A DNA stretch of 64,000 bases from Promethearchaeota archaeon (lineage in GTDB: Archaea > Asgardarchaeota > Lokiarchaeia > Sigyniarchaeales > SOKP01), in the NCBI GenBank assembly GCA_016839705.1, contig JAEOTR010000079.1:1-64000 (forward strand). Reading direction: 5' to 3'. The notes beneath the pieces were generated by a model. The model saw nothing but the letters and a program-made list of their open reading frames with translations, searched no databases and was not told where the DNA came from. The position numbers and the translations under genes are program-made. Shown piece by piece: positions 49,994 to 58,082 of this stretch. Positions within the stretch are counted from its first letter, which is position 1. Every line of letters starts with the position of its first letter.

Positions 49994-50195
49994 GCCAAGG
50001 TGGCGTAGCCCGGTTCATCGCGTTAGAGCTCCTTATTGTAGGGTAAGAACGCACCAGATTCATCGGAGTTACCGATAAAGGTGAAACTGAAGATCTGGGT
50101 ATCGAGAAAAAATTGGGTCTCTTCGACCGTTTTCGGGAAGGTTCAAAAGAAAAACCCGCATTCGAGCTTTTTGGGAACTCCCTCCCTTGGCACCA
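49994..50195 (+). tRNA. tRNA-Phe(GAA) with four putative introns (50014-50046, 50058-50085, 50107-50139, 50148-50178)
   Basis: Joined exons give GCCAAGG TG GCGT AGCCCGGGA ACGC A CCAGA CTGAAGA TCTGG GTATC GAGGG TTCAAAT CCCTC CCTTGGC ACCA with all four stems perfectly paired; BHB-like junctions. Confidence 0.85.
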
Positions 50196-50347
50196 CTCTT
50201 AAGATTTATTATTGATTATTTATATCCCTCTTCTTCTTAAAATTAGATTCTAGCTCTTTTACTACTCCTTTACCATATATATTTAATTTCCCAAATCCTT
50301 TCCTTTTGTCCGTTAATGCTTTTTCAATTGCTTTTATAATTGTATTA

Positions 50348-50995
50348 TCATTTACCAATAATAAAACCTTTCACTTTATCCAATTTCTTTACAACAGCTT
50401 TGGTTATCGAAGTTAATTGCTCATAGTTTTGATGCCCATTAGCAATTAAAACGTGATTACAATCGCATTCTTGAGAAACTTCGAAATCATGGCTCGTATC
50501 ACCTATGAACCATGTTTTTTTCGGGTCTAAATCAGAATTTTCGATAAAATTTTTGGCGATAACGGCTTTACTAACAGCTAAATTATTTGATAAACCTAAA
50601 ATTGAATGAAAAAAACCATTTATCTTTTTTTCTCGCACAGATTTGGTTAAGATTCCTTGTTCCATAGCAGATATTATCGTTTGCTTGTAACCCAATTGGG
50701 AAAAATAGTGCAGATTTTCTTTTACACCGGGAAATAGTTGACAAGATGGTAATCTGGAATTATATTCTGATATGAATTCTTCGGTGATTTTCTTAAAATT
50801 TTCTGTGGATGTATCAAAACCTAATTTGCTGTAGTAATTTTGAACTGGGAACGTGAATATTTTTTTATAGGATTCTTTAGAAATAGTTTTTTTATTATAT
50901 TTTGACAATAAAGCATTGATCGAATCAATGCAGATATCAACATCATCTAAGAGCGTACCATTCCAATCCCAAATGATCGTAAAATTGTCTATCAT
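50348..50995 (-). CDS. HAD family phosphatase
   Basis: WDWNGTLLDD, FIGDTSHD. Confidence 0.88.
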   Translation of the reverse strand: MIDNFTIIWDWNGTLLDDVDICIDSINALLSKYNKKTISKESYKKIFTFPVQNYYSKLGFDTSTENFKKITEEFISEYNSRLPSCQLFPGVKENLHYFSQLGYKQTIISAMEQGILTKSVREKKINGFFHSILGLSNNLAVSKAVIAKNFIENSDLDPKKTWFIGDTSHDFEVSQECDCNHVLIANGHQNYEQLTSITKAVVKKLDKVKGFIIGK

Positions 50996-51149
50996 TACGT
51001 TTTATTTATTTCTTGTTCCGATTTTTTAGTTGTATATATAAAATAATTTCCTGAAAACCAGTATTTCTTTAATTAAGTGGGTTTTTCAAATTAAATTTTT
51101 TTATTAAATCCATAACATCGGAAAACCAACAATTGCTTTTAAGAAAATC

Positions 51150-51680
51150 TTAAGTGAGAATGTCTTTTCTTCTTACATCATATTTTATAAATTCTTGAAA
51201 TTGTTCATTATCCTCATCAATAAACTCCCAAAACTCATCGTAGAGTTCCCGCAGTGTTTTGTCTTTATTTTCTGATTTGATCTGTATCTCTTGTTTTTGA
51301 AAATTCTTAATTTTATTCTGACGATTCGGTATATATTCGAGATAATCCCCCTCTAAGACTAAATTTTCAAATAATTCCTGATCATCTTTGATACTGTTCT
51401 TAGGTTGTTGGTTTTGTTCGATCTTTGTCTTTTCAAATTCAAAATCTACTCTTTGATACCCTCTTACCACAAAATTTTTATCTACAAACGCTTGAAATTG
51501 GTGTTCACAAACTAGACCTCTTGCTATTGACATTGTAGTTAAACCTTTTGTTTTATCAACAATTGATCTAGGAGATTTCAAGCTTTTTTTAGATTTACAA
51601 ACGGGACAGATAAACTGAATCTGGGTAAAATTAGTTGAGGTAATTATTTCGGGGCTTTGGGCTAGTTTAGTAACTGCCAT
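51150..51680 (-). CDS. zinc-finger protein of a family I recall as common in Lokiarchaeia
   Basis: CPVC...VCEHQFQAFVDKNFVVRGYQRVD. Confidence 0.65.
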   Translation of the reverse strand: MAVTKLAQSPEIITSTNFTQIQFICPVCKSKKSLKSPRSIVDKTKGLTTMSIARGLVCEHQFQAFVDKNFVVRGYQRVDFEFEKTKIEQNQQPKNSIKDDQELFENLVLEGDYLEYIPNRQNKIKNFQKQEIQIKSENKDKTLRELYDEFWEFIDEDNEQFQEFIKYDVRRKDILT

Positions 51681-51785
51681 AATAACACCTTCTTTTTATA
51701 CTCAGAAATTAAACATAAAAACTCCTATATAAATTATAACAGAGTGAAAGGAAAAGTAAAACCCAAATTTCAAAACTTGGGATTA

Positions 51786-52328
51786 TTAGGTATTTTGAGG
51801 ATCAAGTTTTAAATTCATGTTTGTTTCATCCAGCTCAAAATTAATTATGAAATTTGACACTATATCGCTTTCAATTTTAAAAACATGCTTACCCTCAACT
51901 AAATTTTCTAAAATACTCGCGTTAAGCTTAAATAATACACTGATGGTATCACCTAATTCTATCATTCTACCACTAAATTTACCTTCAAGAATGTCGTCTA
52001 AATCAAATGATTCTCCTTTATGATAAATGATAAATTGACTCTTTAAATTTTCAATTTTAATTGATTCTTTTGGAATATTGATTGGATTATCGTCTAAATA
52101 CAGTGTTGCGTATTCAGATAAATCAAAAGTGTTTATATCAATACTGTTTAAATCAAAATCCCCAAGTTCGATATTTTCTGGAACTGAAAAGGGGATTATT
52201 AAATTTTTTACCTTTATTTTTAAGGAATCTGCTTTTCCATCTCCCGTTGTATCTATTGTAAACACGCTTTCTTTAGGAGGAAAAAGCCTTTTAATTAAAA
52301 CTTTAAAAGCAGATAAATCAAATGGAAT
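51786..52328 (-). CDS. hypothetical protein (probable ATT start)
   Basis: Frame is open from ATT 52328 (8 nt after GGTG) through the GTG 52265 used by the ORF track. Confidence 0.6.
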   Translation of the reverse strand: MPFDLSAFKVLIKRLFPPKESVFTIDTTGDGKADSLKIKVKNLIIPFSVPENIELGDFDLNSIDINTFDLSEYATLYLDDNPINIPKESIKIENLKSQFIIYHKGESFDLDDILEGKFSGRMIELGDTISVLFKLNASILENLVEGKHVFKIESDIVSNFIINFELDETNMNLKLDPQNT

Positions 52329-52398
52329 ATTCTATACACCAATTTTTTAAAATTAACTTTTAGAATTTGGGGTACTTTATTAAAGATTTTATTTTAAA

Positions 52399-53421
52399 CT
52401 ATAGATTAATTTCAGAAATCTTTACAGGGCGATTTTCTTTGTATGATCTCTGAACTGCAGTTGCTATTATCGCATTTATTAAACCATCTTCTCCGTTTGG
52501 AGAGGGTTCATTATTATAACGTAAGCTTTCGAAGAACGAATGTAATTCTAATGCATATGATTCCATATATCTCTCTAAGAAGAAGTATGGGATGTTGTCT
52601 TCCTTTGTCTTTTCAGCTGTATAGAGGCGAACAGTATTGGTCGGTTCATTATCCGCAACAGCACATCCTTTCGAGCCAAAAACTTCAACTCTTTGGTCGT
52701 ATCCATATATAGCTTGACGAGAGTTATCAATTATACCAATAGCACCATTATCAAGTTTTAAAATAATCGCAGCAGTATCAATATCTCCAATTTTCCCTAC
52801 TTCAGGATCAACAAGAGCTGCTCCAGTAGCATATACTTCTTCAACTTCGCTTCCCGTTTGAAAGCGTACCATATCCCAATCGTGTATTGTCATATCAAAA
52901 AACATTCCTCCTGAACTTTTTAAGTACTCAATTGAAGGGAGTGCTGGATCTCGAGCAGTCACTTTAACGATTTGAGGGATTCCGATTTGGCCGGATTTAA
53001 CAATCTCTCTAACTCTTTTAAAGTTTTTGTCAAATCGCCTATTAAATCCAATCATAAGTTTGATTCCTTCATTTTTAACAATTTCTAGAGTTTCCTTGAT
53101 GAGTTTCAAATCTGTATCAATCGGTTTCTCACTAAAAACATCTTTTTTAAGGTGGGCTGCTTTTTGAATGAACTTAACATGTGTATCTGTAGAGGAAGCA
53201 ATCACTACAGCATCAATCCCAGGGTCATTAAAAATATCGTCTGCATCTTGGATGAGTAAAGGAACTCCTACTTTCTTTGCCCATTCTTTCATTTGATCAT
53301 CGATGTTAATATCAGCAACCATTTTCAACTTTAATCCGGGTACATTCCGTATAATATTTTCAATGTGTATTTTCCCAATTCTACCGACGCCTATAACCCC
53401 AACATTAAATGTAGACTTCAC
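52399..53421 (-). CDS. iolG: myo-inositol 2-dehydrogenase (Gfo/Idh/MocA)
   Basis: GVGRIG, SEKP, GFNRRFD, DMTIHDWD, YGYDQRVEVFGS. Confidence 0.9.
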   Translation of the reverse strand: MKSTFNVGVIGVGRIGKIHIENIIRNVPGLKLKMVADINIDDQMKEWAKKVGVPLLIQDADDIFNDPGIDAVVIASSTDTHVKFIQKAAHLKKDVFSEKPIDTDLKLIKETLEIVKNEGIKLMIGFNRRFDKNFKRVREIVKSGQIGIPQIVKVTARDPALPSIEYLKSSGGMFFDMTIHDWDMVRFQTGSEVEEVYATGAALVDPEVGKIGDIDTAAIILKLDNGAIGIIDNSRQAIYGYDQRVEVFGSKGCAVADNEPTNTVRLYTAEKTKEDNIPYFFLERYMESYALELHSFFESLRYNNEPSPNGEDGLINAIIATAVQRSYKENRPVKISEINL

Positions 53422-53579
53422 AATATATCACATACAACGCTTTGTTATCTAATTGGAATATGAAAAATGAAAACTACCTTTAAAATCTATAAATGAGAAT
53501 TAAAGTTTTAAATTTATGTAAGTCTAAATTGAATTAATCACATAAAAATTTATTAACAATTAATAAAAGTGTAAGTTTA

Positions 53580-54791
53580 ATGAATGAAACGAATATACAA
53601 GTGTATAGCTATAGATGGATTGAGTTATTACTATTTATGTTTGTGAATATAACATTACAGATGCTCTGGATTAGTTTTGCAGCAGTTACTTTAGAAGCAA
53701 CAGCCTTTTATAATGTAGATGAGTTATTAATATTACTTTTATCAATGTCCTTCATGATTGTTTATATTCCAATCACATTTCTAGCATCTTGGTTGATAGA
53801 TAAATATGATTTTAAAATTGGGGCAGGAATTGGTGCGTTATTAGCTGCCATATTTGGTTTCTTAAGATTTTTTGCCTTCACCGATTACACTTTAGTATTA
53901 GTATTTCAAATTGGAATAGCTATTAGTCAACCATTTATTTTAAATAGCATAACAAAATTATCCTCAAACTGGTTTCCAGAATCGGAACGTACTACTGCTA
54001 CGGGATTATCTCTAATTTCTCAGTTTTTGGGAATTGCCTTCGGGGTGTTAATAACTCCTATCCTCGTTACAGGAAATGATTTGGGTCTAATGTTATTAAT
54101 ATATGGTATAATAGCAATGATTTCAGGCATTTTATTCCTGGTGTTTGCTAAAGACAAACCCCCTACTCCACCATCAAAAGTAGCTACAAGTGAAAAAGTA
54201 TTCATGTCTGAGGGGCTTAAACAACTATTTACCAATAGACAATTCTTGATTTTAGTAATGATATTTTTCATCGGATTAGGCACATTTAATATGATTACCT
54301 CCTATATCGAATTAATAGTTATTCCTAGAGGTTATGGAGCAGAAGAAGCTGGGATTCTTGGAGGGATAATGTTGTTTGGCGGAATCATTGGTGCGATTGT
54401 AATGTCTGCTCTATCTGATAAATTCAAAAAACGGAAAATCTTGATACTTATTTCTGTTTTAATTGCCGCTATTTCTCTATTTGTTCTGTCTTTTACTAAT
54501 GATATTACTTTATTATATGTTTCTAGCTTTTTACTAGGATTTGGAATTCTGTCTGCGGGACCTGTTGCTCTTGAATTCGCTGTAGAAAAGACACGACCTG
54601 TTCCAGAATCGTCTTCAAATGGCATCTTAATGATGATAGGACAAGTTGGTGGTATTCTGTTTATTCTTGGACTGGTAGATTTCACCCTTAATGGAGATTA
54701 TCTCCCTGCATTACTTCTGCTGGCAAGCTTAACGGTTTTGATATTCATTTTAGGATTTTTCTTAAAAGACACAAAACATGAAATTGATTGA
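53580..54791 (+). CDS. MFS transporter (FLVCR-like)
   Basis: About 12 TM segments; YSYRW, WFPESERTTATG. Confidence 0.88.
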   Translation: MNETNIQVYSYRWIELLLFMFVNITLQMLWISFAAVTLEATAFYNVDELLILLLSMSFMIVYIPITFLASWLIDKYDFKIGAGIGALLAAIFGFLRFFAFTDYTLVLVFQIGIAISQPFILNSITKLSSNWFPESERTTATGLSLISQFLGIAFGVLITPILVTGNDLGLMLLIYGIIAMISGILFLVFAKDKPPTPPSKVATSEKVFMSEGLKQLFTNRQFLILVMIFFIGLGTFNMITSYIELIVIPRGYGAEEAGILGGIMLFGGIIGAIVMSALSDKFKKRKILILISVLIAAISLFVLSFTNDITLLYVSSFLLGFGILSAGPVALEFAVEKTRPVPESSSNGILMMIGQVGGILFILGLVDFTLNGDYLPALLLLASLTVLIFILGFFLKDTKHEID

Positions 54792-54894
54792 TTAATCTTT
54801 TCTTTATTTTTTTTATTTCTTTTATTCAAACAAAACTTTTTATATCATTTTAGTCTATTTTTTGTTATTCCTTACTTATTGGAGATTTAAGCAA

Positions 54895-55563
54895 ATGAAC
54901 GAAGACAGTAAAAATGGATTTGAGAATGAAGAAGAGGATCTTGAAATAAAAGAAGTTGAATTTGATAAAGAGACAGAAAATAAGAAGCAAGAAATTGCTA
55001 CTAAAAAAAAATTAGCTTTTTTATTAGACCAATCAAAAGATTCGGTGGAAGAAAGTAATGAATGGGGTACTTTTAGAATAAGATCAACTAATTCTACCGA
55101 AATTTTAGAAAATGAATCATTTTACAGAACTCCTCTAACAAATGTGATTGAAAATGAGACCGAATATTTTTTTCTTGTAGAATTACCTGGATTGGATAAA
55201 CGACATGTAAATATTACTCTTCAGGAAGATATATTAGAAGTGTTAGGTGAAAAAACGCTAAAACATGTAGAAGAAAAAGAAGAGAAAAAAAAGAAAGAAA
55301 AAAAGGAAGATAAAGAAAAAAAAGATGAGAAGAAAGATAAGCATAAAGATAAAAAAGACAAGAAAAAAGAGAAACACAAAGATCTCAAAGGAGATTTTTT
55401 AAGAAGAGAATTTAGGTCATCCAGCTTCTATAGAAGCTTTGTCCTCCCTGAAGAGATAAATTCAGAAGGTATCGATGCAAGTTTTAAAAATGGCATTCTA
55501 AGATTAAGAATACCCAAAAAGATTACTGAAATTGGGGATAAAAAGACAATTGAAATAAAATAA
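54895..55563 (+). CDS. Hsp20/alpha-crystallin protein with K/E/D-rich insertion
   Basis: VELPGL, RREF...FYRSFVLPE, ASFKNGILRL. Confidence 0.9.
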   Translation: MNEDSKNGFENEEEDLEIKEVEFDKETENKKQEIATKKKLAFLLDQSKDSVEESNEWGTFRIRSTNSTEILENESFYRTPLTNVIENETEYFFLVELPGLDKRHVNITLQEDILEVLGEKTLKHVEEKEEKKKKEKKEDKEKKDEKKDKHKDKKDKKKEKHKDLKGDFLRREFRSSSFYRSFVLPEEINSEGIDASFKNGILRLRIPKKITEIGDKKTIEIK

Positions 55564-55614
55564 AATTCATTTTCTATCTCATTTTTTTTTAAAAAAAGGG
55601 AAAAAACTAAATTT

Positions 55615-56112
55615 TTAGATTTTCGCACCACAATAGGCACAATATTGCGCAGACTCCTTAGTTTTGGGAGTACCACAATTTGCACAAAACTTTGCTTGCT
55701 CTCCCGAAGTTACTTCTTTTTCTGGGTGTAAAAGATGTTTCATTTGGCCTGTTTGTGAGCTAAATTTTGCTCGAAGTTGACCTGATGCTTTAAGATCCAG
55801 TACTATTGCGTGAATATCTTTTATCGTAATTCCTGTACTCTTGCTGACCTCTTCTACTGTAGCCTCTGGATTCTCATTAAATTCAGTTAGTACAACATTT
55901 CTTAGTTTACTTCTGTTTGTCAACGCGAAAATTTGTCCGATTAAAATTGCTAAGCCGATTCCCGTTGATACAAAACCCCACCACTCCCAGCCTCTGCCCC
56001 AGTTTATAAATCGTTCAATCCCCCACCATAGAAACGCCCCAGCAATAATTAGGGTGCATATTGAGAACCCATCTGAATATTGGTTTTTCTCATATTTCAT
56101 TTTTTTTTTCAC
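55615..56112 (-). CDS. 2-TM membrane protein with wHTH-like region and C-terminal double zinc ribbon
   Basis: Two TM helices; FCANCG...YCAYCG. Confidence 0.7.
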   Translation of the reverse strand: MKKKMKYEKNQYSDGFSICTLIIAGAFLWWGIERFINWGRGWEWWGFVSTGIGLAILIGQIFALTNRSKLRNVVLTEFNENPEATVEEVSKSTGITIKDIHAIVLDLKASGQLRAKFSSQTGQMKHLLHPEKEVTSGEQAKFCANCGTPKTKESAQYCAYCGAKI

Positions 56113-56256
56113 TTATTTTTCTGTTTCTGAATTATTAAGATTTAATTCTGTTAAGTAATTTACTTGCTATTATAAATTTTACTCTAGGAATCTCTTTCAA
56201 ATGAAGAAAACAATGGTAAATTTTTTAGATTTACCAGATGGAACTCCTTTACTGAT

Positions 56257-56610
56257 TTAATTAGTAATTATACATTTGTTTATTATATCAAAAATAGATG
56301 AAAAATCAATTTGATCTTCCATAAGAAGTATAATAATCTTATTTAAGATTTTTAGTGAAAGCACGTAGAAGTTATCTGAGTGAATTACTGTGAAGTCAGG
56401 AGAGTGTACACCAATATCAGAAGTGATTTCCTCAGCTAATTCATATAATTGAGACACATTTAACCCTATTGACGTTTTATTGAATTCTTGGTTAATATAT
56501 GACTTTATAACTGCACCATTTTCAGAGGTTATTAGTATGAAATATAGTCCAGAACCTAGTTCTTTTACTAAAGTATCCAATACTAAATCAACTTCTAGAG
56601 TTGCAGTCAT
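56257..56610 (-). CDS. Roadblock/LC7-like protein
   Basis: LYFILITSENGAVIKS plus the helix/strand pattern; ATG 56610 preferred. Confidence 0.65.
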   Translation of the reverse strand: MTATLEVDLVLDTLVKELGSGLYFILITSENGAVIKSYINQEFNKTSIGLNVSQLYELAEEITSDIGVHSPDFTVIHSDNFYVLSLKILNKIIILLMEDQIDFSSIFDIINKCIITN

Positions 56611-56766
56611 TGTGATATAATTTATTAGTCTGTTTATATATAATTTGTGGTGAAAATTATTATTTCGATACAATTTCTCAAACATAAATCATCTTTCTAA
56701 ATTTAAAAATGTTGATTAGATTTTGTTTGAGTATGATTAATTCTATAAAATACTGTAGAAAATACT

Positions 56767-57240
56767 TTAAATCTCAAAATATTGGTCTATAACAGTGTCA
56801 AAACTGTGAAAAGGTGAAACATCTCCTTTAAAATTAGTGATATAAGGATAATAATATTTTTCTATAAATTTGTCTACTACTATATGAATGTACTTATCGA
56901 AATTTTCCGTGAGTTTATCTCTTTCAATAAAATACGCAAAAATGACATTATTCTTGATATTAACATAAAAATGATGACTTCCCAAATTGATATCTTCGAG
57001 CCTTAATTCAGGATCCTCACCACTGATAAAATCCTTCGAATAGATTAATATCGCTGAAATAAAACCAGCAATTTGAAATATGTTTTTAGATATCTTTTTT
57101 CTATTTTTATTCACTTTAGAGAAGTATAATAGTCCTGTTTTATCTAAAGCAAGAAAGCATACTAAACCTTTTGCTCGAGGAAATTGAATTGATTTAATAT
57201 AAATTCTTTTTTTTACATATAGATACGAGATAATGGACAA
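56767..57240 (-). CDS. longin-like domain protein (start uncertain)
   Basis: LALDKTGLLYFSK...IAGFISAI...FYV...IFAYF...FKGDVSPF pattern. Confidence 0.6.
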   Translation of the reverse strand: MSIISYLYVKKRIYIKSIQFPRAKGLVCFLALDKTGLLYFSKVNKNRKKISKNIFQIAGFISAILIYSKDFISGEDPELRLEDINLGSHHFYVNIKNNVIFAYFIERDKLTENFDKYIHIVVDKFIEKYYYPYITNFKGDVSPFHSFDTVIDQYFEI

Positions 57241-57274
57241 AAAATCTTTTTATAAAATAATATTTTTAAAATAA

Positions 57275-57664
57275 TATTTAGATATCCCGGAGAGACGAGA
57301 CTTCAATGTAGATAGAATTAGACTCCAGCAAGTAATTACTAATATCTTATCTAATGCTATTAAGAATACGCCTTTAAATGGGATTATTTACCTTAGGTTA
57401 ATTAATAAACCTGAATATGTCGATATTATTATAAGAGATACTGGAGTGGGGATAACACCAAAAGAAAAAGAATTATTATTTGAGAAATTTGGCAAAATTG
57501 AAAGATATGCTATGGATTTAGGTGTAGACATCGAAGGTTCTGGTCTGGGTCTATACATATCAAAGGAAATTGTAGAATTACACGGTGGTCAAATACTAGT
57601 AGAGTCTGAAGGAAGAAATAGAGGATCCCGGTTTATCATTCGATTAAGTAAACCTCAGTTTTGA
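57275..57664 (+). pseudogene. isolated HATPase_c fragment of a sensor histidine kinase
   Basis: DRIRLQQVITNILSNAIKNT, DTGVGI, GSGLGLYISKEIVELHGG; in-frame TAA at 57272, no H-box, no ATG/GTG/TTG before the N-box. Confidence 0.7.
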
Positions 57665-57672
57665 ATAAAAAG

Positions 57673-57806
57673 TGGGCCAGGCAGGATTCGAACCTGCGAC
57701 ATCCCAAAACGAAGTTCGCCGAAAAACGCCGAATTTGTCCGAAGCCGGGCACCCTTGCTGGTGTTTTCCATATTGGAAATAAAAATCCAGGCTAGATTAC
57801 AGGCCC
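57673..57806 (-). tRNA. tRNA-Arg(UCG) with two introns (D-loop 57756-57784; ~39/40 57707-57736)
   Basis: GGGCCTG...ATCT AGCCTGGAT|A GGGT G CCCGG CT TCG GA C|TGGG ATGTC GCAGG TTCGAAT CCTGC; the D-loop BHB has a perfect CTGG/CCAG helix. Confidence 0.88.
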
Positions 57807-57975
57807 ATAGTTGGTCTAAATGTGATATTTTCTTAAATTTAATTCTTAAAAATTAAAATCATCTAACTTATAATATTTTCATCTATTATTTCAAAAAAAC
57901 ATTTGCTTGTATTCTTCAAAATTTAATTCAATAGAATTGATATCGATCTCATGATCAAGAAAATATAATTTAGAA

Positions 57976-58082
57976 TGGCGCGGCTAGCGGGATTTTCTAA
58001 AAAGCTCGAAGGGAACTTTCTTTTGAACCCGCGTCGCAGGAGTGACAGTCCCGAATGCTAGACCGGGCTACACTATAGCCGC
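57976..58082 (-). tRNA. tRNA-Asp(GUC) with T-loop (59/60) intron 57993-58021
   Basis: GCGGCTA/TAGCCGC acceptor, CGGGA CT GTC AC TCCTG, GCGGG TTCAAA|T CCCGC, encoded CCA. Confidence 0.92.

Follow-up and report, generated by a model that had tools for sequence, protein, structure and literature searches.

Two tRNA genes of a Lokiarchaeia genome each carry a short intron at the same place in the T-loop, which raises the question of whether introns have been copied from one tRNA type to another in this lineage and, if so, by which route. The genes lie in a 64,000-nucleotide (nt) stretch from a Promethearchaeota archaeon (positions 1 to 64,000 of contig JAEOTR010000079.1; hereafter, the window), which is contig C73 of the genome called G000 below. 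The tRNA-Phe(GAA) gene (49994..50195, + strand) has five exons and four introns, of which intron 4 (50148..50178, +) is 31 nt long; the tRNA-Asp(GTC) gene (57976..58082, − strand) has a single intron of 29 nt (57993..58021, −). An original prediction, made from the letters of the window, held that these two introns are homologous and that introns had been copied between tRNA genes, perhaps also between positions, in this lineage. Sequence comparison across related genomes confirmed the homology, but the two window introns are not donor and recipient: the family to which they belong, here called family F, appears to be older in tRNA-Phe and to have jumped at least once to tRNA-Asp earlier in the genus.

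One intron family in two tRNA types

Standard searches of the window with ARAGORN and Rfam called a tRNA-Gly alone and missed both the Phe and the Asp gene. We used a purpose-written, intron-aware profile scanner, which allows introns anywhere and whose calls were then refined by splice geometry; it gave about 45 tRNA genes and 43 introns in G000, mostly of 27–31 nt. Removal of all four introns from the Phe gene leaves a 77-nt tRNA-Phe(GAA) and removal of 57993-58021 leaves a tRNA-Asp(GTC). ARAGORN called both spliced forms, both genes encode the CCA end, and intron-free orthologs exist for both tRNAs.

Phe intron 4 and the Asp intron both follow TTCAAA, as had been noticed, and both occupy Sprinzl position 59/60. 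The exact 12-mer that they were said to share is also present (50161..50172, +, in Phe intron 4, where it covers the loop end and the 3′ arm of the intron hairpin; 57999..58010, −, in the Asp intron), 6 bases ahead of each 3′ splice site and in register. The global identity of the pair, 22/31 (71%), is the highest among the 903 intron pairs of G000. Dinucleotide shuffling reached the score of the pair once in 20,000 shuffles and gave a 12-mer nine times; when the two ends and the stem arm were kept constant, 384 of 20,000 shuffles reached the score and 7 the 12-mer. Among shuffled intron sets, 1/150 had a maximum as high. The likeness, for which a comparison with shuffled introns under composition and bulge-helix-bulge (BHB)-type constraints had been proposed, exceeds most shuffles, including the constrained ones. 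Taken by itself, the window pair is significant but not overwhelming. The background likeness is raised by the stereotyped layout that these introns have in common: one bulge base, a stem of 9 base pairs (bp), a 5-nt loop, a 4-nt helix partner and two bulge bases.

The homology was settled by the relatives of the two introns, since these form one family. In the genus, Phe was recovered from 43 and Asp from 47 genomes; family F is present at Phe 59/60 in 17/43 and at Asp 59/60 in 6/47, with the Asp gene of G036 as a possible seventh carrier, maybe of a derived copy. The best pair across the two isotypes (G014 Phe and G071 Asp) agrees at 28/30 positions. Pairs inside the family have a median score of 27 (maximum 54), against a median of 8 for 683 unrelated cross-isotype 59/60 pairs, one of which reaches 32, the score of the window pair. 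A possible Val(CAC) member in G092 was left out of this comparison; its 59/60 intron (L184) matches family F at 22/30 and was picked up by the family's own pattern, making it a possible third host. At least ten other 59/60 introns under equal constraints are unlike family F. Of the roughly 25 families with more than one member among the Phe, Asp and Arg introns sampled, family F alone crosses isotypes.

A pattern built from family F, with no tRNA type named, was used to scan GTDB (185,579 genomes) and metagenomes. Of its 15 matches in GTDB, 14 were the family F intron in these tRNAs (10 Phe and 4 Asp), as were 21 of 24 in metagenomes (19 in Phe, 2 in Asp). Within the taxonomic family, Phe copies were found in three genera, two of them besides the genus studied, and Asp copies in one; the other taxonomic families searched yielded none. 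Outside tRNAs in G000, the best matches to family F (23–24/30) were at background level.

A second cross-isotype family emerged after the 58/59 intron of the tRNA-Ser(GGA) gene of G000 (G000:C87:126155-126286, − strand; loci L290-L315) was seen to resemble Val and Thr introns. A pattern search of 135 genomes turned up members in six tRNA types: Ser(GGA), Val(CAC), Arg(CCT), Thr(CGT), Ile(TAT) and Lys(TTT). The Thr and Ile copies agree at 27/30 inside G145, and the other links between hosts are weaker (20–24/30). Identities of 80% or more between tRNA types within one genome are found for this family in G145, G117 and G143 (24–27/30), whereas family F stays below that level (71% and 73%). Several genomes of the taxonomic family have tRNA genes that read as Ile(TAT), with a putative intron of 47–49 nt near 39/40 (L305, L310-L312, L314 and L315); the TAT anticodon of Ile is uncommon in archaea.

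The occurrence of family F in Phe and Asp, together with the second family, supports the broader claim that introns have been copied between tRNA genes in this lineage. The further suggestion of copying between positions found no support: both cross-isotype families keep their position, and no cross-position family was found among 290 introns. Phe introns 1 and 2 had also been said to begin alike. Intron 2 in fact starts one base earlier than was thought (A at 50058), which puts the two starts out of register; the pair scores 14, only 2/27 orthologs of intron 1 start with TTCAT, and the orthologs reach a mean score of 9 and a maximum of 23. We rejected homology in this case as chance.

Probable direction of the jump and proposed movement between species

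We considered the possibility that one window intron was copied recently from the other within G000, aided by the proximity of the two genes. Both carry family F in this genome, and they lie 7.8 kb apart in the window and 8–17 kb apart in 20 genomes. Yet each copy is far closer to copies elsewhere: the window Asp intron matches Asp of G021 at 27/29 and Phe of G014 at 26/30, but its own Phe neighbour at 22/31. A tree with the two window copies as sisters was rejected (approximately unbiased (AU) test on 30 columns, p = 0.023), and in the only two genomes that have both a Phe and an Asp copy, these are 71–73% identical. We rejected a direct copy inside G000 on these grounds and regard it as very improbable.

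Mean identity in family F is 0.67 within Phe and 0.84 within Asp; tRNA-Phe is the likelier first host because its copies are more diverse and more widespread. A single Asp clade in the intron tree was not rejected (AU p = 0.29).

The species were compared on an rpoB tree of 52 genomes. G000 sits beside G027 and G077, in agreement with trees of the proteins flanking both tRNAs, and these two nearest relatives are without the Asp intron. The six Asp carriers are scattered, requiring 6 changes on the rpoB tree, and their grouping as a clade was rejected; such scatter alone could reflect loss. Three further observations point to exchange between species. A different intron family occupies the same Asp site in G010 and G033, which are not sisters (AU p = 7e-7), and their common ancestor is also ancestral to carriers of family F; one site cannot hold both families in an ancestor. 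Two discrete types of Asp acceptor stem, four base pairs apart, need 12 changes on the tree, against 14.8 when shuffled. Finally, the Phe gene of G023 is a mosaic, with exons, intron 1 (31/31 with G028) and downstream flank as in the group of G007, G011 and G028, and an intron 2 of the type of its own clade. The tRNA genes of the window likewise have a mosaic appearance: the non-sister G067 has counterparts of Phe introns 1 and 2 that agree at 32/33 and 28/28, and the 39/40 intron of tRNA-Arg(TCG) matches that of the distant G061 at 28/30. Across the loci inspected (L001-L030, L090-L129), tRNA-Asp has two and tRNA-Phe three acceptor stems. Their distribution on the species tree is scattered, and the internal intron often stays the same.

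Several points weigh against a jump from Phe to Asp followed by exchange. Identity alone does not prove lateral movement, since short introns can be conserved vertically: the intron of rnhB, one of the protein genes described below, keeps 90% or more identity in 3/176 distant pairs. The direction and number of jumps are soft, because the intron tree was built on 30 columns and lacks any starred branch, and the Phe copy of G014 could be a back-copy from Asp. The species tree rests on one gene and has weak deep nodes. No exon base was found to have been converted along with the intron. The genomes are metagenome-assembled genomes (MAGs), G000 being 93% complete with 6.8% contamination, and chimeric assembly is a rival explanation for single mosaic cases; yet several studies have records with an Asp copy of family F. 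One MAG, G004 (9% contamination), contains three distinct tRNA-Phe(GAA) alleles, each with different introns (L097, L053 and L127). Remnants of tRNA 5′ ends upstream of the genes were considered as recombination scars and not accepted, as 6 were seen against 0–7 in control windows.

A proposed mechanism and its alternatives

The reading that we favour, with a probability of about 0.6, is an older jump from Phe to Asp by way of T-arm likeness, followed by spread between species through exchange of tRNA alleles. The jump would most likely have been a gene-conversion-like copy at the DNA level, anchored on the T-arm, the part common to tRNA types. A Phe allele with the T-stem GTGGG matches Asp (GCGGG) at 11/12 bases before the insertion site and at 5/6 after it. 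As the position is kept, the 3′ end of the intron would still pair with bases 54–57 and the intron would stay removable. Orthologous tRNA genes have almost the same exons throughout the genus, and recombination between them would then have carried intron-bearing alleles from one species to another. The conflict between trees suggests that G000 received its Asp intron through such an exchange and not from its own Phe gene.

The T-stems of the hosts are suggestive only, but would fit copying that depends on similar flanks. GTGGG stems, found in 10/30 copies listed, hold all three of the Phe copies that most resemble Asp, and all six hosts of the 58/59 family have GGGGG, a stem found in 13/43 tRNAs of G000. 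Against this, the associations are among kin, and unrelated 58/59 introns are often in GGGGG stems too (3/5 hosts).

Homing introns, of group I or LAGLIDADG type, invade orthologous sites that lack them, in other species too. Unlike these, family F introns are hairpins of 29–31 nt with no open reading frame (ORF), no ribozyme fold, no encoded endonuclease and no demonstrated driver of biased spread.

An RNA route, in which endonuclease and RtcB act in reverse to join the excised intron to another tRNA, with the product then written into DNA by a reverse transcriptase, would also predict jumps to the same position, because the 3′ end of the intron must pair with bases 54–57. The jumps are precise and position-keeping, G000 encodes one EndA gene (the splicing endonuclease) and the ligase RtcB, and stereotyped 30-nt BHB inserts occur in protein genes as well, where tRNA homology cannot guide them. 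On the other hand, a reverse transcriptase was not found in G000, the tRNA introns have no homologue among the mRNA inserts, and a reverse-transcription signature was not found in an Asgard preprint (bioRxiv 10.64898/2026.10.13.758758). Moreover, the same pairing with the T-loop is available in nearly every tRNA, yet the hosts have the donor's T-stem. We consider this route unlikely. Still less probable is delivery by integrative elements whose attachment site comprises a tRNA 3′ end with its T-loop intron and which sometimes integrate at a non-cognate gene (the model of PMC3293823). Such elements would explain both the T-loop bias and the movement between species. In G061, a second Phe 3′ end lies 39 nt downstream of the gene (L091), with a spacer 37/38 identical to the downstream flank of G003, and a similar remnant, a tRNA 3′ end, lies 67 nt downstream of tRNA-Phe in G034 (L042). 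However, three scans of IMG/VR, in which Lokiarchaeia elements are thinly sampled, gave no copy of either family in a tRNA context; G000 has no partial copy of either 3′ half; and a 3′ attachment site fails to account for the additional exchange of D-arm introns and 5′ acceptor bases.

About as improbable as delivery by elements is a single ancient jump from Phe to Asp before the radiation of the genus, followed by vertical descent with many losses and no exchange between species. One jump does suffice for the intron tree, and several intron families are conserved throughout the genus; but this account is already strained by the G010/G033 family at the Asp site, by the near-random spread of acceptor-stem types and by the mosaic Phe alleles with foreign flanks. 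Convergence, finally, supposes that the same position, hairpin plan and AT-rich DNA produced look-alike introns without common descent. The introns are indeed stereotyped (36 families of 30 nt and 15 of 29 nt, with 5-nt loops in 34), TTC[GA] near the loop is somewhat enriched (17 against 10 expected), and the 71% identity of the window pair is in the range where chance matches are called common (bioRxiv 10.64898/2026.10.13.758758). For family F, however, this is refuted by the 28/30 cross-isotype pair, and the low scores of the unrelated 59/60 pairs and the dissimilarity of the other introns under like constraints also argue against it, which leaves convergence with very little probability.

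Transposition of tRNA introns between isotypes is established in Thermoproteales (Fujishima et al. 2010, as described in PMC4090602, PMC4390854 and bioRxiv 10.64898/2026.10.13.758758). According to these accounts, related short BHB introns are found there across tRNA types, as here, and the mechanism is thought to act on DNA. By the same accounts, 28% of Thermoproteales introns are in cross-isotype families at 80% identity within a genome, a level that no pair reaches in G000, and related introns recur at different positions, whereas both families described here keep their T-loop position; our cross-isotype families are visible only across species, unlike the within-genome families of Thermoproteales. 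The 58/59 family has a class II host, Ser(GGA), and PMC4390854 knew no translocatable intron in class II.

The Asgard tRNA intron census (bioRxiv 10.64898/2026.10.13.758758), which used a within-genome test at 80% identity, placed 1.5% of introns in cross-isotype families, against 0.6% when shuffled, and called the arrival of introns an open question. Its focal lineages are Jordiarchaeia and Atabeyarchaeia, and ours is Lokiarchaeia; the terms Loki-, Promethe-, horizontal, lateral, recombination and gene conversion do not appear in its text. Both data sets have tRNAs with several introns, introns at non-canonical positions, BHB-type boundaries, recurrent change at given positions and only rare copying between isotypes (bioRxiv 10.64898/2026.10.13.758758; PMC11291895). 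The test of the census would score G000 zero, yet at least 3/43 of its introns are in cross-isotype families; a within-genome test misses such copying because donor and recipient end up in different species. Gain of an intron in the tRNA-Thr of Caldiarchaeum through an attachment site (PMC3293823), like the gain proposed here, involves two similar sequences that recombine, one of them intron-bearing; our introns, however, are linked to no element, integrase or partial tRNA copy.

Family F is a Lokiarchaeia case of known intron transposition, in a group where copying was reported to be nearly absent, and it agrees with the census in that cross-isotype copying is the exception. The locus provides a worked case of such copying in Lokiarchaeia and a clue to the arrival of Asgard tRNA introns, for which exchange of tRNA alleles between related species would be a route outside what the October 2026 census tested. 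A wider possibility, which we hold only tentatively, is that the T-loop introns of Lokiarchaeia form a mobile pool, copied between T-arm-matching tRNA types, passed between species as tRNA alleles are routinely exchanged, and fed by a common generator. If so, much of the repeated 'gain' on Asgard trees would be lateral arrival, and the same 30-nt module, including that in conserved mRNAs of the genus, would come from one generator of endonuclease-spliced micro-introns.

Predicted splicing geometry and inserts in protein genes

Both family F introns in the window are predicted to be ordinary endonuclease-spliced introns with a relaxed BHB. Beside the single EndA gene of G000, no second subunit of the endonuclease was found. 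The Asp intron folds at −16.9 kcal/mol (z −3.65) into a 9-bp hairpin with a 5-nt loop, and its predicted relaxed BHB comprises the 5-bp T-stem, a 3-bp helix and the 9-bp intron stem. A canonical BHB has a 4-bp central helix and two 3-nt bulges; both window copies form 3/4 central pairs, and some family F orthologs reach 4/4. RNAalifold, run on 26 bare family F introns, returned no structure, and hence we claim no covariation count.

In the Phe gene, intron 1 (50014..50046, +; 33 nt; D-loop 19/20) and intron 2 (50058..50085, +; 28 nt; 30/31) have a 4-bp central helix, and intron 2 belongs to a Phe-only family found in at least 24 genomes; Phe orthologs carry 0–4 introns. Intron 3 (50107..50139, +; 33 nt; T-stem 51/52) splits the outer helix of intron 4, which grows from 2 bp to at least 4 bp once intron 3 is out. 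Intron 4 then has the pair count of a relaxed BHB, although its lowest-energy fold differs. Because intron 3 breaks this helix, it is probably excised before intron 4. The boundaries of intron 4 agree with its match to the Asp intron, as had been argued, but they are fixed better by intron-free orthologs and splice geometry.

The tRNA-Arg(TCG) gene (57673..57806, −) has introns at 20b/21 (57756-57784) and 39/40 (57707-57736) and is without a family F copy; in relatives, it carries a 59/60 intron family of its own, unrelated to family F. The gap between the Arg and Asp genes is 170 bp in the window and about 800 bp in relatives. Positions 57241-57670, between an ORF ending at 57240 and the Arg gene, resemble, by eye, the C-terminal region of a histidine kinase; the ORF list has no frame of 80 aa there. 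Elsewhere in G000, two identical tRNA-like genes with the anticodon TCA, a probable tRNA-Sec (G000:C87:137433-137553 and C16:22955-23075), reflect either duplication or contamination of the bin.

Hairpin inserts of 30–31 nt flanked by a BHB interrupt the reading frames of RNase HII, mevalonate kinase and thioredoxin in G000; BHB-type inserts were located on C25 at about 55280 (+; loci L260-L289), on C29 at about 8702 (+; loci L230-L259) and on C49 (−). The rnhB insert is present in 30/30 best-matching orthologs and that of mevalonate kinase in 26/30, the other 4 being cleanly without it. Paired changes of exon and insert are seen within the 4-bp helix in several genomes, and the pattern resembles mRNA splicing of the tRNA type, conserved in the genus as a whole. 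We did not accept homology between tRNA introns and the rnhB and mevalonate kinase inserts: single pairs score 32–36, but family means are 16–23, against 38–41 within a family. By far the commonest lengths of the intron families are 30 and 29 nt, typically with a 9-bp stem and a 5-nt loop, and this stereotypy of size and shape is alike in tRNA and mRNA inserts despite their unrelated sequences.

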